This document shows, in pieces, positions 7,418 to 26,840 of a stretch of 34,635 nucleotides of DNA. Both the position numbers and the translations under genes were made by a program. Each line of letters starts with the position of its first letter. Position 1 is the first letter of the stretch. Under the pieces are notes generated by a model, which was given only the letters and a program-made list of their open reading frames with translations, did not search any database and was not told the DNA's origin. Origin of the DNA: Candidatus Methylomirabilota bacterium (lineage in GTDB: Bacteria > Methylomirabilota > Methylomirabilia > Rokubacteriales > CSP1-6); the NCBI GenBank assembly GCA_046726415.1, contig JBKPAK010000017.1, positions 1 through 34,635 on the forward strand, in the 5' to 3' direction.

Positions 7418-7494
7418 GCGCCTGTAGCTCAGGTGGATAGAGCATCGGCCTTCTAAGCCGAGGGTCGCAGGTTCGATTCCTGCCAGGCGCGCCA
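7418..7494 (+). tRNA. tRNA-Arg(TCT)
   Basis: Acceptor stem GCGCCTG/CAGGCGC, anticodon arm TCGGC-CTTCTAA-GCCGA, T-loop GTTCGATTC and an encoded CCA; 77 nt. Confidence 0.97.
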
Positions 7495-14749: not shown

Positions 14750-14825
14750 TGGTGGAGCTGAGGGGGCTCGAACCCCTGACCCCAAGACTGCCAGCCTTGT
14801 GCTCTCCCAACTGAGCTACAGCCCC
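14750..14825 (-). tRNA. tRNA-Ala(GGC)
   Basis: Acceptor stem GGGGCTG/CAGCTCC with G3:U70, anticodon loop CTGGCAG, GTTCGAG T-loop and CCA; 76 nt. Confidence 0.97.
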
Positions 14826-14838
14826 ACCGCGAGCAGTC

Positions 14839-14867
14839 ACGTTACAAGGGAGGGTGAGGAGTGTCAA
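14839..14867 (-). promoter_or_regulatory. sigma70 promoter for tRNA-Ala
   Basis: TTGACA-N17-TAACGT, ending 13 nt before the tRNA 5' end. It overlaps the RBS and start of the divergent serine hydrolase. Confidence 0.75.
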
Positions 14868-16054
14868 GGAATCGGACGGCCCTGACGATTCGCTCGCTGT
14901 GCCTGGTGACCGCTCTGGCAGCGCTTTGCGCCTCTGGCGCCGAAGCCCAGATCAACCTCCGCCAGGTGCTGGAACCGTACCTCGCCACCTATGGCCTCCC
15001 CGCCCTCGCCGCCGCGGTCGTCAAGGACGGCAAGGTCGTAGCGGCCGGCGCCGTGGGCACACGCAAGGTGGGAACGAAGATTCCGGTGACGACGGGGGAT
15101 CGGTTCCACCTCGGATCCGACACCAAGGCGATCACCGCGCTGCTCGCAGCCCTCCTCGCCGAGGAGGGCAGGCTCAGCTGGACATCGACGGTGGCCGAGA
15201 TCTTCCCGGAGTTGGCGCCGACCATGACCGCCGGCCTTCGAGCCGTCACGCTTCAGCAACTCCTGTCTCACACGAGCGGCATCCCCAGCGACAACGCCGC
15301 CTTCGATGACCTTCTCGGCAAAACCGCCCTCCAGGAGGGCAACCTCGACGACTTGCGCTACTTCATGGTCCAGCAGTGGAGCGCGCAACCGCTCTCGACG
15401 GAACCCGGCACTGCGTTCGCGTACTCGAACATGGGGTACACGCTCGCCGGGGCCATGTTGGAGCGTGTGGGTGGCAAGACGTGGGAGGAGTTGGTGACGG
15501 AGCGGATCTTCAAGCCGCTTGGCCTGGCGTCCGCGGGATTCGGACCGCAAGCAACCCTGGGCAAGGTCGACGCGCCGCTCGGCCACGCCGTGGTCGACGG
15601 CAAGCTCAAGGCGTTCTTGGCCGGGCCCGGCGCCGACAACCCACTCGTGATCGGACCGGCCGGAACGGTCCACATGTCCCTCCTCGACTTCGCGAAATGG
15701 GCGGGGTGGAACGCCGGTGAGGGCCGGCGGGGTCCGCGGTTGGTGCGGCCGGAGACGCTGCGGACGCTTCACACCCCCGTGATCTCGATGCCGGATCGTC
15801 CGGACGCAGCACCGGGGACACCATCGCGCGGGAAATATGCCCTCGGCTGGGGTCAGGTCATCGCCGAGTGGGCGCCCGAGCCGTTTGTTTATCACGGCGG
15901 ATCGAACCTGAAGAACCTCGCCCATATCCTGCTCCAGCCGAAGCACGACTTCGGCCTGGTCCTCGTCACGAACGTCTCCGGAACGAAGGCCGATCAGGCG
16001 TTTCTCGCCCTGGCTCAGCAGCTCTCTCGAGCGTATGGCCCTCCGAGGAAGTGA
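14861..16054 (+). CDS. secreted serine hydrolase, beta-lactamase/AmpC-like family
   Basis: Signal peptide ending AEA; FHLGSDTK (SxxK), LLSHTSG, FAYSN (YxN) and HGGS. Confidence 0.9.
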   Translation: MSRNRTALTIRSLCLVTALAALCASGAEAQINLRQVLEPYLATYGLPALAAAVVKDGKVVAAGAVGTRKVGTKIPVTTGDRFHLGSDTKAITALLAALLAEEGRLSWTSTVAEIFPELAPTMTAGLRAVTLQQLLSHTSGIPSDNAAFDDLLGKTALQEGNLDDLRYFMVQQWSAQPLSTEPGTAFAYSNMGYTLAGAMLERVGGKTWEELVTERIFKPLGLASAGFGPQATLGKVDAPLGHAVVDGKLKAFLAGPGADNPLVIGPAGTVHMSLLDFAKWAGWNAGEGRRGPRLVRPETLRTLHTPVISMPDRPDAAPGTPSRGKYALGWGQVIAEWAPEPFVYHGGSNLKNLAHILLQPKHDFGLVLVTNVSGTKADQAFLALAQQLSRAYGPPRK

Positions 16055-16081: not shown

Positions 16082-16168
16082 TGGTGCCGAAGGTGGGAGT
16101 CGAACCCACACACCCTTCCGGGTACACGATTTTGAGTCGTGCGCGTCTGCCAGTTCCGCCACTTCGGC
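16082..16168 (-). tRNA. tRNA-Leu(CAA)
   Basis: Acceptor stem GCCGAAG/CTTCGGC, anticodon arm CACGA-CTCAAAA-TCGTG, long variable arm and CCA; 87 nt. Confidence 0.97.
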
Positions 16169-16250: not shown

Positions 16251-17432
16251 CTAGGCGGTGGCCGCACCGGCCAGAGCACAGAGCGCGACGATCAGCCAGG
16301 GTGGGGCCCGCCAGAACATGAGAAGGCCGAAGGCCGCGAGAGCGATGGCGACGTCGGCGCGTGTCGCCACGGCGCTCGTCCACACGGGGTGATAGAGGGC
16401 GGCGAGGAGGATGCCCACCACGCCGGCGTTGATGCCGCGGAGCGCGGCCTGGAAGTCGGCGCGCGTTCGTATCTCGTCCCAGAAAGGTAGAACGCCGACC
16501 ACGAGCAGGAACGAGGGCAGAAAGATGGCCAGCAGGGCCAGCGCCGCGCCCGCCACTCCATTGGGCTCAGGCCGCATGACGGCGCCGAGGTAGGCGGCAA
16601 ACGTGAAGAGGGGGCCGGGGACAGCCTGCGCCGCGCCGTAGCCGGCGAGGAACTGCTGGTCGGTCACCCAGCCGGGAGGAATGACCTCGGCCTGAAGCAG
16701 CGGCAGCACCACATGACCGCCGCCGAACACGAGCGATCCGGTTCGATAGAAGCTGTCGAAGGCGGCGAGCGCCGTGCTCGCCGAGAATTGCCGGGCGACC
16801 GGCAAGGCGATCAGGAGGGCGAAGAAGATCGCCAGCGATACGGCGCCGACCCGCCGGGAGATCCACACCCGCTCGCGCGATGTCGCGCGGCTCACGCCCT
16901 CGGGGAGGAGCCCCCAGCCCACCAGTCCGGCGACGACGATGATGGCCACCTGCGCCAGGGCCACCGGGACGGCGAGGGCCGCGATGGCCGCGGCAATGGC
17001 GAGGCTGGCTCGTTGGCGATCCGGCGCCAGCGACCGCGCCATGCCCCACACCGCGGTGGCCACCACGGCGACCGCCGCCAGCTTGAGGCCGTGGAGCCAG
17101 CCGGCGTCCGTCACCCCGGATCGCTCCAGCGCGAACGCGAAGATCACGAGGGCGATGGCCGATGGAAGCGTGAAGCCGAGCCAGGCGGCGAGACCTCCCG
17201 TCAGGCCCGCGCGAGTGATTCCCACCGCGATCCCCACCTGGCTACTGGCCGGGCCGGGAAGGAACTGGCATAGCGCCACCAGGTCGGCGTAGCGGTGCTC
17301 GTCGAGCCACTTCCGCTTGAGCACGTATTCCTCGTGGAAGTACCCGAGGTGCGCCACGGGGCCGCCGAACGACGTCAGTCCGAGCCTCGTGGCCACCGCC
17401 AGGACTTCCAGGGTGCGGGAGGTGTCAGCCAT
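16251..17432 (-). CDS. chrA: chromate efflux transporter (long-chain CHR family)
   Basis: LGLTSFGGPVAHLGYF, CQFLPGPASSQ, GSLVFGGGHVVLPLL and AQAVPGPLFTF, with two CHR repeats. Confidence 0.93.
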   Translation of the reverse strand: MADTSRTLEVLAVATRLGLTSFGGPVAHLGYFHEEYVLKRKWLDEHRYADLVALCQFLPGPASSQVGIAVGITRAGLTGGLAAWLGFTLPSAIALVIFAFALERSGVTDAGWLHGLKLAAVAVVATAVWGMARSLAPDRQRASLAIAAAIAALAVPVALAQVAIIVVAGLVGWGLLPEGVSRATSRERVWISRRVGAVSLAIFFALLIALPVARQFSASTALAAFDSFYRTGSLVFGGGHVVLPLLQAEVIPPGWVTDQQFLAGYGAAQAVPGPLFTFAAYLGAVMRPEPNGVAGAALALLAIFLPSFLLVVGVLPFWDEIRTRADFQAALRGINAGVVGILLAALYHPVWTSAVATRADVAIALAAFGLLMFWRAPPWLIVALCALAGAATA

Positions 17433-17448
17433 CGCTAGACTGCGGAGT

Positions 17449-18003
17449 ATGGGCCAAGAAATTCGAGCGATCCAGATTGGTGAGGCGCTTCCGCCGCTCC
17501 GGCTAGAGACCGGATTCGGAGAGGCCGTCGAGCTCACCGCCTGGGGCGGTCGACCGCTCCTCATCGCCTGTCTCCGCTACTATGGCTGAATGCCCTGACG
17601 CGACTATCTCGCGCAGGTGCGCGAGGCCCATCCAATCGTCGAAGCGCTCGGCGCCAAGGTCATCGCGGTGGCCACCGGCGCGGACTTTCAGGCGCGCGCG
17701 CTCATGAAGGACGGCATGCCTTTTCCCTGTCTCGTCGACCCCGACGCCGCGCTCTACCGCGTCCTGGGCATCGGCCGTATCGGACTCCACGCGTTCGTCG
17801 ACCCGGCCACCTACCTGAACTACTGGCGGGCCTGGCGACGCGGGAGCCGTCAGGGCGCGGTGACCGGCGATCCGCGGCGCCGGTCCGGGGTGGCCATCGC
17901 AGATGCCGACGGCCGCCTGCGCTGGCGTCACGTCGCATCCACGATCGGCGACTATCCTCCAATATCGAGCGTGCTGGATCGCCTGCGGCAGGTCGCGCGA
18001 TGA
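17449..18003 (+). CDS. selenoprotein, peroxiredoxin-like/SelL-related redoxin with a UxxU motif (184 aa)
   Basis: ORF-track fragments ending at 17589 and starting at 17617 are in the same frame: LRYYG-TGA-ATG-CCC-TGA-RDYLAQVRE. Both TGAs occupy the CxxC positions of a thioredoxin fold (later KVIAVATG and FPCLVDPDAALYRVLG). A SECIS-like hairpin follows. Confidence 0.85.
17608..17625 (+). promoter_or_regulatory. bacterial SECIS-like hairpin
   Basis: CTCGCGC-AGGT-GCGCGAG is a perfect 7-bp stem with an AGGU loop. The loop begins 16 nt after the second UGA and 25 nt after the first. Confidence 0.75.
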
Positions 18004-18148
18004 GCCGCTCCCGCACCCCGGCCGCCGGTTGGCCGACGCCCCTTGCGGTAGAATCACGGCAATTCCTGAGGTTCGATCCGCGCGTGGAGGGCCGGAGCAT
18101 GGCAGTCTACACACGTTTCCCACGGTCGTGCTGAAGGCGAGCTGACTC

Positions 18149-20290
18149 ATGGAACGCTCGTTTGCCGAGGACGTCAAGCAGCTGGGGTTCGGCGCCGGCC
18201 AGGTCCTGCACGGCGAAGGCATTCTGGCCATCACCAAGGCGTTGCTGGAGTCCGGGGTGAGCTATGTGGGCGGCTATCCGGGCGCTCCCGTCTCGCATCT
18301 CATCGATGTGCTCGCCGACGCCAACGAACCGCTCCTCAAGTCGATGGGCGTCTACTTCGAGCAATCGGGGAGCGAGGCGGCGGCCGCGGCACTGCTGGGC
18401 GCGTCGATCAACTACCGCATGCGCGGCGCCGTCACCTGGAAGTCGGTCGTTGGCACCAACGTGGCCTCCGACGCCCTCTCCCACGTGGCCTCGGCCGGGG
18501 TGCTGGGCGGGGCCCTGATCGTCATTGGAGAGGACTACGGCGAAGGCGCGTCGATACTTCAGGAGCGCACCCACTCGGCCGCCCTCAAATCGAGCGTCCC
18601 CCTCCTCGATCCCCGGACCACCTTGCCGAGCTTCCAGCACTTCGTGCACGAGGGCTTCGGCCTTTCCGAGGCGTGCAACGAACCCGTATTCTTCAGCATC
18701 CGCATCCGCGCCTGTCACCTCCGCGGCACCATGGTGTGCCGCGACAACATCACGCCAGCCATCAGCATGCTCTCCCCGCTGGGGACGCCCAGCTTCAGCC
18801 TCGAGCGCATCAACCTGCCGCCGTTCACCTATGCCATGGAGACGAAGAAGTTCGAGGAGCGGCTGCCGGCCGCGCGCCGCTATGTGGTCGAGCACGCGCT
18901 CAATGAGCACATCCCCGGTCCGGAGAGCGACGTCGGAATCGTCATGCAGGGCGGCGTCTGGAACACGACCCTGCGCGGGCTCGCGAGCCTGGGCCTAGCC
19001 GACCTCTACGGACGGACGCCCATTCCGCTCCTCATCCTCAACTGCCTGCATCCGCTGGTGCCCGAAGAGCTGCTCGGCTTCCTGCGCGGCAAGCGCCGCG
19101 TGCTCGTGGTCGAGGAGGGGATGCCGAACTACATCGAGCGGGAATTGAAAGCGCTGGCCCACGAGGCGCGGCTCGACGTGGAGATTTCGGGCAAGGATGT
19201 GCTGTCGCCAGCCGGCGAGTATGTGCCCGGCCTCGTCATCTCGGGGCTGCGGCGCTTTTTCACCGCGGCGCCCCTCCGCTCGGTGTCGGCGGCCGGCGTG
19301 GAGGAGCGCTACCAGAGCCTGACCGCCCATCAGGGCAGGGTCCGCGCGGTGCTCCCGCAGCCGGTGGCCAAGCGGCCGCCCTCCTTCTGCACCGGCTGCC
19401 CCGAGCGGCCGGTGTTCAGCGCCATGAAAATCCTCAAGCATCAGGATCCCGCCATCGGCGATACCCACGTCGCCCACGACATCGGGTGCAGCACGTTCTC
19501 CACCCAGGCGCCTTTCAACGTCGGCAACTCGGTCCTCGGCTACGGCATGGGGCTCGCCTCCTCCAGCGCGGTGGCTCCGCTCTTCGGCAAGCGGGTCATC
19601 TCGGTCATGGGCGACGGCGGCTTCTGGCACAACGGGCTCACCAACGGTGTGGCCAACGCCGTCTTCAACAAGCAGGACTCGGTGCTCGTCATCCTCGACA
19701 ATTTCTACGCGGCGGCCACCGGCCAGCACCACGTGCCGTCGACCGGCACCAACGCCCGCCGCGAGACGGTCCCCATGACCATCCCTCAGGCCCTTCAGGG
19801 ATTGGGCGTCAAGTGGATCCGCACGGTGAACTCCTATCGCATCCCGGCCATGATGCGAGCGCTCCGGGAGGCGCTCACCACGCGCGAGGGTGGGCTCAAA
19901 GTCATCATCGCCAAGGGGGAATGCCAGCTCGAGCGCCAGCGCCGCGAGCGCCCGCGGCTGCGGGCACTCGCCGCCCAGGGGCAGACGATCGCGCAACCGC
20001 GCTTCGGCGTCGACCCCGACGTCTGCACCGGCGATCACTCGTGCATGCGCCTCAACGGGTGTCCGTCCCTCACCCTTCGCGAAAGCTCCGACCCGCTGCG
20101 CGAGGATCCCGTGGCCCACGTCGACGAGACCTGCGTGGGCTGCGGAGTGTGCGGTGAGGTGGCCCACGCCGCTACCCTCTGTCCGTCTTTCTATGAAGTG
20201 CGGGCGATTCGCAACCCGGGTTGGTGGACGCGGTGGCTGGGGGGCGTGCGCCGGGCCATCATTCGTCGGCTGGCTGCCGTGGGAGGGTAA
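18149..20290 (+). CDS. iorA: indolepyruvate:ferredoxin oxidoreductase alpha subunit family
   Basis: GGYPGAPVS, RPPSFCTGCPER, DIGC, the TPP motif MGDGGFWHNG...LDN, and a C-terminal ferredoxin-like domain (CVGCGVC). Confidence 0.92.
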   Translation: MERSFAEDVKQLGFGAGQVLHGEGILAITKALLESGVSYVGGYPGAPVSHLIDVLADANEPLLKSMGVYFEQSGSEAAAAALLGASINYRMRGAVTWKSVVGTNVASDALSHVASAGVLGGALIVIGEDYGEGASILQERTHSAALKSSVPLLDPRTTLPSFQHFVHEGFGLSEACNEPVFFSIRIRACHLRGTMVCRDNITPAISMLSPLGTPSFSLERINLPPFTYAMETKKFEERLPAARRYVVEHALNEHIPGPESDVGIVMQGGVWNTTLRGLASLGLADLYGRTPIPLLILNCLHPLVPEELLGFLRGKRRVLVVEEGMPNYIERELKALAHEARLDVEISGKDVLSPAGEYVPGLVISGLRRFFTAAPLRSVSAAGVEERYQSLTAHQGRVRAVLPQPVAKRPPSFCTGCPERPVFSAMKILKHQDPAIGDTHVAHDIGCSTFSTQAPFNVGNSVLGYGMGLASSSAVAPLFGKRVISVMGDGGFWHNGLTNGVANAVFNKQDSVLVILDNFYAAATGQHHVPSTGTNARRETVPMTIPQALQGLGVKWIRTVNSYRIPAMMRALREALTTREGGLKVIIAKGECQLERQRRERPRLRALAAQGQTIAQPRFGVDPDVCTGDHSCMRLNGCPSLTLRESSDPLREDPVAHVDETCVGCGVCGEVAHAATLCPSFYEVRAIRNPGWWTRWLGGVRRAIIRRLAAVGG

Positions 20291-20297
20291 GAGGCCC

Positions 20298-21851
20298 GTG
20301 GGCGAGCCACGCATCATCAGCGCGCTGATCCCCGCGGTGGGCGGGCAAGGTGGAGGCGTGCTGGCGGAGTGGATCGTGGAGGCGGCCCTGGCCGATGGCT
20401 ACACCGTGCAGAGCACGTCGATTCCCGGGGTGGCCCAGCGGACGGGCTCGACGTCGTACTATGTCGAGCTGTTCGAGGAGCGTGACCACCGCGCGGCGGG
20501 ACCCCCCATCTTCTCGCTGTATCCCGTCCCCGGAGCCCTCGACATCCTGCTCGCTCCGGAGTTCCTCGAAGTGGGGCGCGCCATCGAGCTGGGGTTTCCA
20601 TCGCCCGCCCGCACCACGATCATCGCCAGCTCGCATCGGCTGTACGCCATCCACGAGAAAATGGCCATTGGGCGGGGCATTTACCCGATCGACGATCTGG
20701 AGGCGGCCGCCCGCGCCTTCTCGCGCACGGCGATCGTCTTCGACGCGCTCGCCTTGGCCCGCGAGCACGGCACCGAGGCCAACGCCGTTCTCCTCGGAGC
20801 CCTGCTGGCCAGTGGGGCCCTTCCGGTGAGCGAGGCCGCCTACCGCAAGGCCATCGAGGTCAAGGGCGTGCAGGTCGCCGCCAATCTGAGGGGCTTCGAG
20901 GTCGGCGTCGAGCGCGCCCGAGCCGTCATGGCCTCCCGACGCAACGGTCAGGCGACGGCCGCGACACCAGGAGTGACACCACCCCCGGAGTTCGCCGACG
21001 AGGTGGCGGTCCTTCCCGAGTCGCTGCGCGCGATCGCGAGCACGGCGCTGGCTCGTCTCGTCGACTATCAGGATGCCGCCTACGCCCGCCGCTATCTCGA
21101 CCGGATCCGGCCCTTCGTCGCGCGCGACCCCGAGCTGGCCAGCCTCGTGGCGCGCCAGCTCGCCGTGTGGATGACCTACGAGGACGCCATTCGCGTCGCC
21201 CAGCTCAAGACGCGGTGGACCCGCTTCGAGCGGATTCGCCGAGAGGCCCGCGATCCGGGCGCGGAAATCGTCGTCACCGACTACTTGAAGCCCGACCTCG
21301 ACGAGATCTACGGCATCCTGCCTCACCGGTTGGTGGCGCCTTTTGCGCGCTGGGCGGAGCGGCGGTGGCCCCAGGGTCGACCCACGCTCGGACAGCACGT
21401 CCGAACGACGACGGTGATGGGATACCTCCGCCTGTGGCTGCTGGCTCGCTGCCGATGGTTGCGCGCATCCTCCTATCGCGCGCACCACGAGGGGGCTCGC
21501 CGGGAGCGCTGGCTCGAGCTGGTGGAGCGCTGCGCCGCGCGCAATCTCGAGTTGGCGCGCGAGGTGGCCCAGGCCCCTCGGCTCGTAAAGGGCTATGGGC
21601 AGGTGCGCCGCCGTCTGGAGACGACGTTCGACGAGCTCCTGGCGTACGTGTCGCGCGCCGCTGACCTCGACGCGTCCCGTGACGGCGATTTTTACGTTGC
21701 CCGAACGCTGTCTCGCCGCTGCCGTGAGCTCGTGCTGGCGGGGCCCGATGGCGAGGCGCAGGCATCGCGTGTGGCGGCCGATGCCGTGACGCGGCTGGAG
21801 GCCAGCGACCGTGCGGGGGCGCTGGCCGCGCTCGGCGAACGGGCCTCGTAG
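20298..21851 (+). CDS. iorB: indolepyruvate oxidoreductase beta-subunit family protein (long form)
   Basis: AVGGQGGGVL, SIPGVAQRTGSTSYY, RLVDYQDAAYA, WMTYEDAIRVA and LVKGYG. GTG start 7 nt after the iorA stop. Confidence 0.9.
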   Translation: MGEPRIISALIPAVGGQGGGVLAEWIVEAALADGYTVQSTSIPGVAQRTGSTSYYVELFEERDHRAAGPPIFSLYPVPGALDILLAPEFLEVGRAIELGFPSPARTTIIASSHRLYAIHEKMAIGRGIYPIDDLEAAARAFSRTAIVFDALALAREHGTEANAVLLGALLASGALPVSEAAYRKAIEVKGVQVAANLRGFEVGVERARAVMASRRNGQATAATPGVTPPPEFADEVAVLPESLRAIASTALARLVDYQDAAYARRYLDRIRPFVARDPELASLVARQLAVWMTYEDAIRVAQLKTRWTRFERIRREARDPGAEIVVTDYLKPDLDEIYGILPHRLVAPFARWAERRWPQGRPTLGQHVRTTTVMGYLRLWLLARCRWLRASSYRAHHEGARRERWLELVERCAARNLELAREVAQAPRLVKGYGQVRRRLETTFDELLAYVSRAADLDASRDGDFYVARTLSRRCRELVLAGPDGEAQASRVAADAVTRLEASDRAGALAALGERAS

Positions 21852-22582: not shown

Positions 22583-22936
22583 TTGTCCGGTTACGTGGCC
22601 GTCTTCATCTTCGCCTTGATGATCGTCGCCTTCGGCGTGGTGTCGATGGCCGCGGCGAAAGTGCTCCGGCCGTCTCGACCCGATCCCGTGAAGCTCATGA
22701 ACTACGAATGCGGAGCGGAGCCGATCGGCGAGGCCTGGGTGCGGTTCCCGGTGGGGTTCTATCTGGTCGCGCTGGTGTTCGTGGTCTTCGATGCGCTGGC
22801 GGTCTTTCTCTTCCCGTGGAGTCTGGTGCTGCGCGAGGCTGGGATGCCGGCCTTCTGGACCATGGCGGCGTTCGTGGGGATCCTCGGACTTGGCTGGCTG
22901 TATGCCTACCGCGAAGGCGTACTCGAATGGAAGTGA
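22583..22936 (+). CDS. nuoA: complex I subunit A
   Basis: [30 protein letters not shown] and EGVLEWK. TTG start after GGAGGAG. Confidence 0.93.
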
Positions 22937-23562
22937 AGCCGCCCATCCCCCAAGTGCCGCCGCCCGGGTGGAGCGAGGTCAAGGACCTTCAGGAGTGGGA
23001 GAAGTACCACCAGGAGCGCGGTGACAACGACAAGACCAGTGAGGTTCTGGCCAGCATCGCCGACGCCATCCACCACATGCCGGGTGGCTGGATTGCCACC
23101 ACGTCGACCGACAAGATCTTCAACTGGGCGCGAAAGTCCTCCCTGTGGCCGGTGACCTTCGGCCTCGCCTGTTGCGCCATCGAAATGATGGCCACGTTCG
23201 CCTCGCGCTTCGACGTCGAGCGCTTCGGCATGGTGCCGTGGGCGTCGCCGCGCCATTCGGATCTCATGATCGTCTCGGGTACCGTCACCATCAAGATGGC
23301 CCCCATGCTCAAGCGCATCTACGACCAGATGCCCGATCCCAAGTGGGTCGTATCGATGGGGTCGTGCGCGAACTCCGGCGGTCCGTTCCGCCACGGTTAC
23401 CACGTGGTGAAGGGGGTGGACCGTGTCGTGCCGGTGGACGTGTACGTGCCTGGATGCCCGCCCACCCCTGATTCGCTGATGTTCGGCCTGTTGAAGCTGC
23501 AGGAAAGAGTCGCCGAGTTCCAGAAAACTGGCACGCGATCGGCTGCGGCCCCCGAGGAGTAA
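22927..23562 (+). CDS. nuoB: complex I subunit B
   Basis: [26 protein letters not shown] and [10 protein letters not shown]. Confidence 0.96.
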
Positions 23563-23565
23563 GCC

Positions 23566-24018
23566 GTGACCGCCGCCCAGGCCGTCGAGAGAATCCGGGA
23601 GCAGTGTGACGTCGAGCCGAGCCTGGAGGGCGGGCTGGTCGTCATTCGCCTCGCGCGCGAGCGCTGGCTGGCGGTGGCGCGGGTCGCCAAGGACGATCTC
23701 GGGTGCCACTACTTCAACTGGCTGAGCGCGATCGACTGGAAGGAGAAGGGGCTCGAGGTGCTTTGCCGCCTGGAGAATCTCGACACAGGACTGGTGGTGA
23801 TGCTGCGCTGCCAGTTGCCCCCGGGCGACGCGCGCTGTCCGACGTTGACCGGGCTCTTCCGCGGCGCCGACTGGATGGAGCGGGAGTGCTACGACCTCCT
23901 CGGCGTGACCTTTGACGGTCATCCCGACCTCCGCCGCATCCTCCTCGGTGACGACTGGGAAGGACATCCCCTGCGCAAGGACTACGCCGTCGACATGCCG
24001 TTCACCCCGTATCGCTGA
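23566..24018 (+). CDS. nuoC: complex I subunit C (short form)
   Basis: ADWMERECYDLLGVTFDGHPDLRRIL...GHPLRKDY. Confidence 0.94.
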   Translation: MTAAQAVERIREQCDVEPSLEGGLVVIRLARERWLAVARVAKDDLGCHYFNWLSAIDWKEKGLEVLCRLENLDTGLVVMLRCQLPPGDARCPTLTGLFRGADWMERECYDLLGVTFDGHPDLRRILLGDDWEGHPLRKDYAVDMPFTPYR

Positions 24019-24049
24019 GGCCACGGCCTCGCGCCAAAGGAGCCGACGC

Positions 24050-24685
24050 ATGATCTACGAACTGCGCACCTACACACTCGTGCCGGGAACGCAGGCGCAG
24101 TATCTGAAGCTCAACGCGGAGGTGGGCCGCAAGATCCGCGGCGACAAGTACGGCAAGCTCGAGGGGGCCTGGACCACCGAGTTCGGGACCCTGAACCAGT
24201 ATGTGCACTTGTGGGGGTATCCCGACCTCAACGAGCGGGACCGGCTGCGCGGTGAGCTGGCCAAACACGAGGAGTGGACCAAAGGCTACGGTCCCCAGAT
24301 TCGCCCCTTCATCCTCGCTCAGGAGAACAAGATCCTCTCGGCGGTCCTCCCCCTGCAGCCACCCGCCGACGCCGGGCATCTGTACGAGCTGCGCTGGTAC
24401 CGCACGCAGACTGGCAAGGCCGGAGAGTGGCTCAACCACTTCAAGGCTATTCAGCCGGTGCGCGAGAAGTACTCCCGCCGCGTTGGGCTGTGGCAGACCG
24501 AGATGGGCCAGCTCAACGAGGTCGTGCACATGTGGGCCTATGGCGATCTAAACGAGCGGGCCGCCACGCGGGCCAAGCTGGCGCAGGATCCCGAGTGGCA
24601 GGCCTTCCTGGGCAAGGCCACGCCGCTCCTGGTCAACATGCAGTCCGTCATCCTCACTCCCACCCCCGTGTCGCCGATGAGGTAG
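24050..24685 (+). CDS. tandem (two-domain) NIPSNAP-family protein
   Basis: Two repeats: IYELRTYT...G-W-TEFGTLNQYVHLWGY.DLNER and LYELRWYR...GLWQTEMGQLNEVVHMWAY.DLNER, ending LTPTPVSPMR. AAGGAG RBS. Confidence 0.92.
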   Translation: MIYELRTYTLVPGTQAQYLKLNAEVGRKIRGDKYGKLEGAWTTEFGTLNQYVHLWGYPDLNERDRLRGELAKHEEWTKGYGPQIRPFILAQENKILSAVLPLQPPADAGHLYELRWYRTQTGKAGEWLNHFKAIQPVREKYSRRVGLWQTEMGQLNEVVHMWAYGDLNERAATRAKLAQDPEWQAFLGKATPLLVNMQSVILTPTPVSPMR

Positions 24686-24693
24686 CGCGGCGC

Positions 24694-25857
24694 ATGACCG
24701 ACCCGAGCGGGCGGACGGTCGTCGAGATCGGATACGGGGGCAACGAGCGCCTCATGATGAACATGGGGCCTCAGCATCCGTCTGCCCACGGCGTCTTCCG
24801 CGCCATTCTCACCCTCGAGGGCGAGACCGTGGTGGCGGTGGACGCCGTCATCGGCTACCTCCACCGCTGCCACGAGAAGCTCGGGGAGACCCTCACCTAC
24901 GTGCAATACCCGAGCATCGCCTCCAAGACGGACTACGTGGCGGCCATGACGGCGGAGCTGGCCTACGTCTCCGCCGTCGAGAAGGTCGGCGCCATCGAAG
25001 TGCCGAAGCGCGCGCAGTATCTCCGGGTGATCGCCGCCGAGCTGCAACGAATCGCCTCGCATTGTCTGTGGCTGGGCACATGGTGCATGGACATGGGGGG
25101 CGCCCTCGGCGGCGGCGCTACCATCTTCCTCTACTGCCTGCGCGAGCGGGAGGCCATTCTCGACCTGTTCGAGGCGCTCACCGGAGCTCGGCTCCTCTAT
25201 GGGTTTCACCAGATCGGCGGCGTGCGGTACGACGTCCCCCCGGCATGGGCCGACCGGGTGCGGGACACGCTGAAGCTCATCGAAGGGCGGGTCGACGAAT
25301 ACGAGGCGATGCTCGAGGGCAATGCCTTCTTCGAGGTGCGCACCAAAGGCGTGGGGGTGATCTCCCGTCAGCTCGCCCTCGAAGTCGGCATCGCGGGACC
25401 GCTCCTGCGCGGATCCGGAGTGGCCTTCGACGTCCGCCGGGCCGAGCCCTACTCGTCGTACCAGGACTTCGACTTCAAAATTCCCGTGCAAACAGCGGGA
25501 GACTGCCACGCGCGGTACCGGGTCCGGATGGTCGAATTCAGAGAGTCGATGGCCATCGTGCGCCAGGGGCTCGACGGGCTTCCGGAAGGGCCGATCTCGT
25601 CACGGCCCGGCGTGAAGTCTGTCGGCCAGGTGCGGGTCCCGAAGGGCGAGGGCTACGCGCGGGTGGAAGGCGCGCGGGGAGAGGTGGGCTGCTACCTCGT
25701 GGCTGACGGCGGTCCCAAGCCCTACCGGCTCAAGTGGCGCGGGGCATCGTTCTCGAACCTGTCGGTGCTCCCCCACATCATCCCCGGGCACAAGGTGGCC
25801 GACGTCGTGGCCATCATGGGATCTGTCGACCCCGTGTTCGGCGAAGTGGATCGGTGA
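24694..25857 (+). CDS. nuoD: complex I subunit D
   Basis: NMGPQHPSAHGVFR, GYLHR, ELQRIASH and GSVDPVFGEVDR. No Ni-binding CxxC pairs. Confidence 0.95.
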   Translation: MTDPSGRTVVEIGYGGNERLMMNMGPQHPSAHGVFRAILTLEGETVVAVDAVIGYLHRCHEKLGETLTYVQYPSIASKTDYVAAMTAELAYVSAVEKVGAIEVPKRAQYLRVIAAELQRIASHCLWLGTWCMDMGGALGGGATIFLYCLREREAILDLFEALTGARLLYGFHQIGGVRYDVPPAWADRVRDTLKLIEGRVDEYEAMLEGNAFFEVRTKGVGVISRQLALEVGIAGPLLRGSGVAFDVRRAEPYSSYQDFDFKIPVQTAGDCHARYRVRMVEFRESMAIVRQGLDGLPEGPISSRPGVKSVGQVRVPKGEGYARVEGARGEVGCYLVADGGPKPYRLKWRGASFSNLSVLPHIIPGHKVADVVAIMGSVDPVFGEVDR

Positions 25858-26840
25858 CCTTGCCCCCGCTGGCCATCTACACCATCGAGGCCTTCGTCCT
25901 GCTCAACGCCGTCATCCTCATGGTCACGTACGTGACCTTGCTGGAGCGGAAGTTTGCCGCGCGGATGCAGTCGCGCATCGGCCCCTACTACGTAGGGCCG
26001 CGAGGGCTCCTCCAGCCGATCGCCGACGCCCTCAAGCTCATGATGAAGGAGGACGTGGTGCCGACCGCGGCCGATCGCCCCGTGTATCACCTCGCCCCTC
26101 TCGTCTTCCTGGTGCCGTGCATCCTGATCTTTGCCACGATTCCCTTCGCCCCCGAGCTGGGGCTCGTCGATCTCAACATCGGCGTGCTGTTCTTCCTCGC
26201 CGTCTCCGCCCTGGAGATCGTCGGGTTGTTCATGGCAGGCTGGGGCTCGAACAACAAGTACGCCCTGCTCTCCGCCATGCGAGCGGTGAACCAGATCATT
26301 TCGTACGATCTGCCGTTCATCTTCGCCGCCCTCGTTCCCGTGGTCCTGGCCGGCTCCATGCAGCTCTCGGCCATCGTGGTGGCCCAGCAGGGACTGTGGT
26401 TCGCCGCCTATCCGGTGATCGGGCAGCTCGCCTTTGTCGCGTATCTGGTGGCCACCCTGGCCGCGGAGAACCGGGTTCCCTTCGACATCCTCGAGGCGGA
26501 GTCCGAGCTGGTGGCGGGGTTCCGCGTGGAGTACAGCGGGATGAAGTTCGCCCTCATCCAGCTCGGGGAGTATGCGCACATGATCGGCTCGTCGTTCCTG
26601 GGCGCCTTGCTCTTCCTGGGGGGCTGGTTGGGGCCGGGACCAGCGTGGCTGGGCCCGCTGTGGTTTCTCCTCAAGGCGCTGGTGATCTTCCTGCTCGTGA
26701 CGTGGGTCCGCTGGAGCTTCGTGCGCATTCGCGTCGACCAGATCCTGGCCATCTCCTGGAAGCTGCTGCTCCCAGCCACCCTGCTCATCCTGTTGGGGAC
26801 CGGCTTCTGGGTGGCTGTGCGAGGGACCGGTGGGGTCTAA
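25854..26840 (+). CDS. nuoH: complex I subunit H
   Basis: LERKFAARMQSRIGP, GLLQPIADALKLMMKE and NRVPFDILEAESELVAGF. GTGA overlap with nuoD. Confidence 0.95.
   Translation: MTLPPLAIYTIEAFVLLNAVILMVTYVTLLERKFAARMQSRIGPYYVGPRGLLQPIADALKLMMKEDVVPTAADRPVYHLAPLVFLVPCILIFATIPFAPELGLVDLNIGVLFFLAVSALEIVGLFMAGWGSNNKYALLSAMRAVNQIISYDLPFIFAALVPVVLAGSMQLSAIVVAQQGLWFAAYPVIGQLAFVAYLVATLAAENRVPFDILEAESELVAGFRVEYSGMKFALIQLGEYAHMIGSSFLGALLFLGGWLGPGPAWLGPLWFLLKALVIFLLVTWVRWSFVRIRVDQILAISWKLLLPATLLILLGTGFWVAVRGTGGV

Follow-up and report, generated by a model that had tools for sequence, protein, structure and literature searches.

Does a pair of closely spaced TGA codons in a bacterial redoxin frame mark the place where a gene has broken, or are both codons read as selenocysteine (Sec) with the help of a single RNA hairpin? 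The question is raised by a locus in a stretch of 34,635 nucleotides from a Candidatus Methylomirabilota bacterium (assembly GCA_046726415.1, contig JBKPAK010000017.1; this whole stretch is referred to here as the window), for which an earlier reading, made from the letters of the DNA and hereafter called the sequence-only reading, had proposed the second answer. The analysis that followed indicates that the locus is, very probably, a genuine gene whose small peroxiredoxin-like product has both active-site cysteines replaced by Sec through the action of one hairpin.

Under translation table 11 the locus appears as two ORF fragments, 17317-17589 and 17617-18003, the second of them with a GTG start. 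As proposed earlier, the two belong to a single frame broken by TGA-ATG-CCC-TGA, in such a way that the 184 codons counted from 17449 are open save codons 47 and 50 and the frame closes with the stop at 18001-18003. The start methionine is aligned to the start methionine of six relatives. The perfect 7-bp hairpin with an AGGT loop described for the region just downstream was also found in place, its loop lying 25 nt past UGA1 and 16 nt past UGA2. The positions of these features are collected in Table 1.

Table 1. Positions of the features of the redoxin locus in the window.
Feature	Position	Strand	Remarks
UxxU redoxin, complete coding sequence	17449..18003	+	184 residues + TGA stop; ATG start at 17449
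UGA1, codon 47, first CxxC position; predicted usual Sec codon of the redoxin family	17587..17589	+	TGA in 16/16 distinct Sec-form sequences
UGA2, codon 50, resolving CxxC position; predicted second Sec codon	17596..17598	+	TGA in 4/16 distinct Sec-form sequences; runs X3, X8
Putative SECIS hairpin	17608..17625	+	arms 17608-17614, 17619-17625; loop AGGU 17615-17618
GTG inside the hairpin; start of the 128-aa fragment 17617-18003 for gene callers	17617..17619	+	ORF listing; P0002
-10-like hexamer TAGACT, possible leaderless promoter	17436..17441	+	ends 7 nt before ATG
Chromate transporter (ChrA family), divergent neighbour	16251..17432	-	Pfam Chromate_transp, 260 bits

The splitting of such a gene by standard annotation pipelines had been anticipated, and this is what the databases contain: 118 of the 120 best matches are C-terminal pieces of 125-140 aa, covering 65-71% of the query and beginning just past the motif, and P0002 together with most of the others starts at the GTG of the hairpin. 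Gene callers truncate this redoxin family at the TGA almost everywhere. A C-terminal piece of this kind, deprived of the first strand and of the active site, would not form the redoxin fold.

The start codon of the divergently oriented ChrA gene is located 16 nt away from that of the redoxin, and a pair of genes similar to 2-oxoacid:ferredoxin oxidoreductases is found downstream; these neighbours (the chromate transporter and the oxidoreductase-like pair) give no firm clue to the function of the protein. A consensus scan of 17200-18250 yielded no promoters or terminators, and no properly spaced Shine-Dalgarno sequence was seen upstream of the redoxin ATG. The TAGACT hexamer agrees with a -10 element at four of six positions and is also found 7-8 nt before the ATG in two relatives, L057 and L051. 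A leaderless mRNA would be compatible with this hexamer and with the absence of a well-spaced Shine-Dalgarno sequence.

With Cys in place of Sec, the deduced protein matches three Pfam families, all over their cut-offs: AhpC-TSA (45.2 bits), Redoxin (35.3 bits) and AhpC-TSA_2 (PF13911; 34.0 bits versus a gathering cut-off of 27), the last of which is precomputed on nearly all relatives. Its score with the NCBIfam model NF040769, named 'SelL-related redox protein', is 102 bits, below the 120-bit cut-off, and the same model is matched by all 34 aligned relatives, with a best E value of 6.8e-56. The AlphaFold2 model obtained from the alignment of the relatives (mean pLDDT 93, pTM 0.90) presents a strand at residues 37-41, a loop, and a helix at residues 48-66 that starts right after residue 47, with U47 at its N-terminal end, supporting the earlier placement of both TGAs where a thioredoxin-like fold has its CxxC motif. 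When a profile of 34 sequences was used, the best solved relative was human prostamide/prostaglandin F synthase, PRXL2B (PDB 9us9, E = 4e-16, positions 14-170), whose CxxC motif coincides in the alignment with that of the profile, and the top matches of Foldseek were peroxiredoxins of the Bcp/PrxQ type and PGFS (PRXL2B; 24% identity, rmsd 2.6 Å). By its Pfam score and its modelled fold the redoxin is placed among the peroxiredoxin-like 2 proteins (PF13911). PRXL2B (PDB 9us9/9usa), best relative by profile and among the top matches by fold, differs in being a eukaryotic Cys enzyme that acts on a lipid substrate, and the match says nothing about the substrate of the bacterial redoxin. A thioredoxin-type CxxC reductase is the closest relative to have been characterised.

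For the codons to be read as Sec, the machinery for its synthesis and insertion should be encoded in the same genome, a draft of 352 contigs that is 98% complete. This was the case: selA (517 bits), selB (374 bits) and the gene for tRNA-Sec (selC; 71 bits) are neighbours on contig C313, with selD (336 bits) on contig C223, all of them above curated cut-offs. The selD gene itself contains an in-frame TGA, and a TGA at the active-site position, or beside it, is present in at least three further redoxin genes of this organism. Hairpins were predicted 16 nt after the UGA in a redoxin gene of contig C120 (loop AGGUCA), 21 nt after it in selD (loop GAUC) and 24 nt after it in a redoxin gene of contig C214 (loop GGGC), and these predictions suggest that the SelB protein of this organism works across both of the spacings that the redoxin needs. 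The largest predicted bacterial selenoproteome belongs to a Methylomirabilota genome, according to passages of a 2026 review (PMC13188914). The database relatives of the redoxin are labelled Rokuibacteriota.

The same genome bears on the possibility that UGA2, or UGA1, is read as a residue other than Sec, either as Cys through a SelB-dependent Cys tRNA similar to tRNA-Sec, called tRNA-ReC, or through near-cognate decoding. The second motif position tolerates Cys in most relatives, and tRNA-ReC-like genes, which decode UGA as Cys with a SECIS, are described as enriched in genomes that encode UXXU hydrogenases in passages of a 2026 paper on these enzymes. Against such a reading, ARAGORN found 46 tRNAs in the whole genome, including one tRNA-SeC (tca) and one ordinary tRNA-Cys of 76 nt (gca), and the only tRNA with a UCA anticodon that was found is tRNA-Sec; with the Rfam model for tRNA-Sec there was a single match over the cut-off, and the seven weaker ones, once checked, corresponded to ordinary tRNAs. 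Neither the Rfam tRNA-Sec model nor ARAGORN, applied to this 98% complete draft, detected a tRNA-ReC, and we regard the incorporation of a different residue as very unlikely.

To follow the two codons across the family, DNA of the relatives was gathered from 16 genome loci, from 8 loci found in 251 genomes of the phylum of the window, and from 33 metagenome loci. Members of the family come from soil and sediment metagenomes and from genomes of the window's own phylum, where 9 of the 251 genomes (G000 included) have a match at E <= 1e-20. Homologues had been expected to carry Cys or Sec at both positions of the motif, and all 34 aligned relatives do so. The first position is TGA in 16 distinct sequences, for which L049 and L059, identical to L032 in the motif region, were counted once, and among them the second position is TGC or TGT in 12 (UxxC) and TGA in four (UxxU). 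The UxxU sequences are the window, L063, L064 and L066, in such a way that, apart from the window, this form is represented only by three divergent metagenome contigs, and the window is the sole genome with two TGAs among the nine matching genomes of its own phylum. One of the 12 UxxC rows is L052, from the unpublished genome G217, and no claim is made on it alone. Other states of the motif were detected at different distances from the window: L053-L056, which form a clade farther removed within this phylum, have U-L-P-C; P0028 (185 aa; coverage 87%), a near relative of full length with Cys, has C-I-P-C; and the actinobacterial-type forms all have C-M-P-C, without a comparable hairpin.

The hairpin was then compared with the consensus model of bacterial SECIS elements (bSECIS), which in passages of a review is described as a loop of 3-9 nt on a stem of 4-16 bp, with a G at one of the loop's two leading positions, usually followed by G or U, a distance of 16-37 nt from UGA to loop and an energy of at most -7.5 kcal/mol. 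All these values are respected for both UGAs, in agreement with the earlier proposal: the AGGU loop has 4 nt, the stem has 7 bp, the second position of the loop is a G followed by another G, and the hairpin alone has an energy of -12.0 kcal/mol. The 16-nt spacing of UGA2 coincides exactly with the lower limit of the model, and insertion of Sec at this codon may be inefficient, given that it is at the bottom of the 16-37 nt range. A scan with Rfam of 17300-18200, at E values up to 10, gave one chance-level sRNA match and no SECIS family.

Hairpins of this kind (perfect 7-bp stem, loop of 3-9 nt, G among the first two nt of the loop) have a frequency of 7.6e-4 per nt in the plus strand of the genome, and the chance of one in the permitted 22-nt interval after a given TGA is about 1.7%. 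What raises the hairpin above chance is the recurrence, in divergent relatives, of the TGA or TGAs and of an identical 18-mer. With 71 nt of context included, the z-score was -0.71, and the minimum-energy fold contained a competing pairing instead of the hairpin; since this z-score is unremarkable and another fold competes, thermodynamics alone does not single the hairpin out. A ribosome placed on the UGA would, judging from ribosome footprints, cover the upstream partner of the competing pairing.

The support from comparison is of a different kind from the one expected. Covariation across orthologues had been put forward as a check of the SECIS, and none of the seven pairs showed a compensatory double change; what was found instead is extreme conservation. 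Pairing is kept in 95.5% of the cells of the 16 distinct Sec-form sequences, and the three one-sided changes preserve it as G-U, two of them at the expense of an amino acid, with Glu replaced by Gly in L067 and Arg by Cys in L068. At the codons for conserved residues a single codon was used in 4 of 5 positions within the hairpin and in 1 of 61 elsewhere (Fisher p = 3.4e-5; 15 sequences, the frameshifted L051 and L058, a near-copy of L057, being omitted). The hairpin is frozen at synonymous sites. The evidence at the RNA level consists of conservation, and this may have other causes among related sequences.

Conservation also helps to decide whether each UGA has a recoding signal of its own, with a second downstream element or an alternative fold acting on UGA2. 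Bacterial SECIS elements are diverse, and some are outside the consensus model, according to passages of the review mentioned above. The RNAalifold consensus is a different and weak structure (-11.55 kcal/mol), and an alternative extended fold was obtained over columns 17-47 of alignment A1. This fold holds UGA2 within its own stem and for this reason cannot serve that codon. In the alignment, no second conserved helix was predicted by RNAalifold downstream of the hairpin, where the sequence is variable. The identical 18-mer is, by contrast, common to both forms, being present in four of four UxxU and in 5 of 12 UxxC sequences. A separate signal for each UGA appears highly improbable from these data, and a single hairpin for both codons is the reading that we retain.

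An error of sequencing or assembly was the simplest origin to be considered for the second TGA, as it depends on a single base in a metagenome-assembled genome. The presence of both TGAs in the reads had been named as a point to verify, and independent Logan contigs from runs X3 and X8 carry the two codons. The contig from X3 (2306 nt, depth 13.9) spans the whole stretch of the gene and derives from a variant strain, with 8 differences in 851 nt, none of them in the TGAs or in the hairpin; that from X8, which belongs to another study, has 153 nt and matches 17510-17662 with no differences. As three more divergent contigs also have TGA at the same codon, the probability of an error is practically negligible. 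Runs X1 and X4 yielded short partial pieces over conserved parts, which are not informative on the TGAs, and none of the runs listed for this stretch was an RNA run.

A genuine TGA could still be a nonsense mutation, in such a way that the UxxU copies would be UxxC genes inactivated recently, or genes that yield mostly a truncated product of 49 residues. A change from TGC to TGA takes one base, Cys is kept at this codon in 12 of the 16 distinct relatives, and with 16 nt UGA2 has the shortest spacing that the bSECIS model allows. Decay does occur in the group, where L051, from a genome of the same genus, is frameshifted by a 1-nt insertion just 3' of the hairpin; either the gene can decay or the L051 assembly is wrong. 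The nonsense explanation requires four independent stops at the same codon, and in four of four UxxU genes the frame is open through to the normal stop, with no other stop or frameshift. The variant strain of run X3, moreover, retains both TGAs and the hairpin.

The recurrence of this codon was apparent from a maximum-likelihood tree of 23 rows (L051 omitted), on which the UxxU label changes four times, at least three of the changes being forced by well-supported branches. L063 (UxxU) is the sister of L061 (UxxC) with support 100/99, and the window (UxxU) is the sister of L057/L058 (UxxC), also with support 100/99. The CxxC form P0028 is a neighbour of L065, a UxxC form, on the same tree.

Selection on the part of the protein encoded after UGA2 was estimated from dN/dS, with L051 and L058 omitted and, for the comparison between groups, also L044, which has a long branch. 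The median was 0.25 in the six UxxU-UxxU pairs, 0.31 in the 40 mixed pairs and 0.39 in the 45 UxxC-UxxC pairs, and the pair L063/L061 gave 0.146; these ratios read the same for read-through and for separate initiation at the internal GTG. All four UxxU genes are under purifying selection, and the ratio after UGA2 is not raised with respect to UxxC genes, contrary to what inactivation would produce. Stops that recur at a single codon, in genes otherwise undamaged and under unrelaxed selection, fit a codon that is being read and not a decaying gene. On the sequence data the UxxU copies are unlikely to be pseudogenes, and the nonsense explanation as a whole is, in our judgement, improbable.

With these alternatives weighed, it is likely that the locus encodes a 184-residue peroxiredoxin-like 2 oxidoreductase with the motif U47-M-P-U50 in which both UGAs are recoded via one SECIS. 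The product would be a cytoplasmic thiol-type oxidoreductase of the AhpC-TSA_2 or 'SelL-related' type. SelB with its Sec-tRNA(Sec), bound to the one in-frame hairpin with the AGGU loop, would recode both codons, the ribosome meeting UGA1 at 25 nt from the loop and, three codons on, UGA2 at 16 nt from it. The insertion of Sec at the two codons through this sole SECIS, the diselenide and the substrate are points that we infer. The redox cycle would go through a diselenol and a diselenide, instead of through the selenol/thiol pair and the selenenylsulfide of a UxxC protein.

The distribution of the motif suggests how the second Sec codon could have arisen. UxxC would be the ancestral state of the clade, with the hairpin serving UGA1 from 25 nt. 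As the codon for the resolving Cys lies 9 nt nearer to the hairpin and is still in its range, a single TGC-to-TGA change at this codon would create a second decodable Sec codon with the RNA element unaltered. Such a one-base switch under a hairpin already in place would explain why UxxU forms recur beside UxxC sisters, and the same model would account for the CxxC form P0028 being found beside the UxxC form L065. We somewhat favour the view that CxxC, UxxC and UxxU orthologues form a series that shares a near-invariant 18-nt SECIS, and that the resolving Cys was replaced by Sec at least three times by a single base change.

One known counterpart is SelL, reportedly described from aquatic animals and marine bacteria. 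In the work of Shchedrina et al. (PNAS, 2007), bacterial SelL genes are said to carry their one SECIS within the coding sequence, spaced so as to suit either or both UGAs, and the diselenide reportedly was demonstrated. Like the redoxin of the window, SelL is a peroxiredoxin-like protein of thioredoxin fold in which UxxU replaces CxxC. The redoxin family differs from it in its origin from soil and sediment and in that UxxU is a minority state, most members being UxxC; compared through the NF040769 model alone (102 bits, cut-off 120), the redoxin is at most a candidate member of SelL. A single SECIS acting on the two UGAs of SelL, two codons apart, is also described in passages of PMC4989117.

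Other UxxU proteins have been reported from sequence surveys. Passages of PMC2398784 mention the motif in bacterial Prx-like proteins, among the 'Prx-like 2' sequences of the GOS survey, and passages of the 2022 and 2026 catalogues (PMC9312934, PMC13188914) list it for families of PF00578 called 'Prx-like thiol:disulfide oxidoreductase'. These catalogued Prx-like selenoproteins share with the redoxin the match to PF00578, a first CxxC position occupied by Sec and, at times, a second Sec. The subfamily described here is recognizable by the motif R-Y-Y-G-U-x-P-C/U and was set beside the catalogued families by the descriptions given of them in those passages, in which, for the two selenoprotein catalogues, no listing of it was found. 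NF040769, PF13911 and SelL are likewise without mention in the passages of the 2026 review (PMC13188914), where the cd02970 family figures only as UxxS, and the subfamily seems to be uncatalogued there. UXXU-type Group 4 [NiFeSe] hydrogenases offer a further parallel, as passages of the 2026 paper on these enzymes propose one downstream SECIS for both of their UGAs. Like the redoxin, they combine a bacterial UxxU motif with a conserved SECIS and a mosaic of Sec/Cys switching on the tree; they differ in that the protein is unrelated, its motif binds metal, and tRNA-ReC is enriched in their genomes, whereas none was found here. Both UxxU redoxins and a single SECIS that serves a pair of close UGAs have been published before, and the idea is not new; what is new is the redoxin subfamily, with its member described here, and the repeated switching between UxxC and UxxU.

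Pairs of neighbouring Sec residues are seldom found in proteins, and the diselenide bonds demonstrated in nature are very few. Provided that both codons are decoded, a single bacterial SECIS acts on one mRNA from 25 and from 16 nt, in the space of three codons, and diselenide active sites would arise easily and repeatedly in nature. The tolerance to spacing of the SelB-SECIS-ribosome geometry would then be directly testable with natural sequences, and so would the relative selective value of the diselenide and the selenenylsulfide. A UxxU redoxin whose hairpin is shared by close relatives of the UxxC and CxxC types constitutes a ready experimental series, which bears on the reach of a SECIS from its UGA and on the benefit of a second selenium to a redox enzyme. 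The 'AhpC/TSA' fragments of 128-134 aa present in the databases should be re-annotated as full-length selenoproteins.

In the genome to which the window belongs (G000), the selD gene carries an in-frame TGA (see the table), and a hairpin of the 9-bp class is predicted 3' of this UGA, with its GAUC loop beginning 21 nt past it. Because of both features, SelD is itself predicted to be a selenoprotein. Three more redoxin genes of this genome contain a single in-frame TGA each, at or near the active site; in the case of the one on contig C178, a hairpin was also sought after the UGA and no clear one was found.

Features located in the window and in other contigs (C) of its genome
Feature	Location	Strand	Remarks
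selD (L019)	G000:C223:11994-12938		In-frame TGA; C-A-G-U-A-S-K
Redoxin (L025)	G000:C214:28134-28430		Y-W-U-P-F-C; predicted hairpin 24 nt past UGA
Redoxin (L028)	G000:C120:1994-2305		Y-W-U-P-K-C; predicted hairpin 16 nt past UGA
Redoxin	G000:C178:7334-7657		G-S-I-U-T-P-E
tRNA-Arg(tct)	window 7418-7494	+	
tRNA-Ala(ggc)	window 14750-14825	-	
Beta-lactamase family (serine hydrolase)	window 14861-16054	+	Pfam PF00144, 183 bits
tRNA-Leu(caa)	window 16082-16168	-	Directly 3' of chromate transporter gene
2-oxoacid/indolepyruvate:ferredoxin oxidoreductase-like pair	window 18149-21851	+	TPP_enzyme_C; POR + DUF6537; downstream of UxxU redoxin
Complex-I/hydrogenase-type subunits	window 22708-25857	+	Oxidored_q6, Complex1_49kDa; downstream of UxxU redoxin
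tRNA-Asp(gtc)	G000 C80:36924-37019		ARAGORN; unusually long, 96 nt
tRNA-Arg(acg)	G000 C345:6129-6219		ARAGORN; unusually long, 91 nt
tRNA-Leu(gag)	G000 C292:24493-24586		ARAGORN; unusually long, 94 nt
tRNA-Pro(cgg)	G000 C85:35350-35436		ARAGORN; unusually long, 87 nt

None of the four long ARAGORN tRNAs matched the tRNA-Sec model (0/4), and they may be tRNAs of odd structure or false calls. Within the window, no motif of the Sec type appeared when 24274-26013 was translated past its TGA; the end of the 49-kDa homologue is normal.

Upstream of the UxxU redoxin start, the hexamer TAGACT (window 17436-17441) is also present in the UxxC relatives L057 and L051, ending 7-8 nt 5' of the ATG, and in the window a GGAG lies just 1 nt 5' of this codon. 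Several further relatives show A/T-rich hexamers 8-12 nt 5' of the start, in an upstream region without a Shine-Dalgarno sequence. This sequence pattern is compatible with leaderless transcripts. L051, an orthologue with the same hairpin from a genome (G163) of the same genus, has a 1-nt insertion around 12 nt 3' of the hairpin (at about 1510-1520) that shifts the frame. This points to a pseudogene or, alternatively, to an error in the assembly.

The strain from another sequencing run (X3) differs from the window at three bases of the 555-nt redoxin gene (17524-17525 and 17778), where one codon goes from Ala to Ser and another changes synonymously, and at five bases of the roughly 145-nt spacer 3' of the stop (18030-18091). 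The database protein P0002 (6 member sequences) shows a single Lys-to-Asn change with respect to the window protein. Together, the X3 and P0002 differences indicate that close strain variants of the UxxU redoxin gene circulate in soils.
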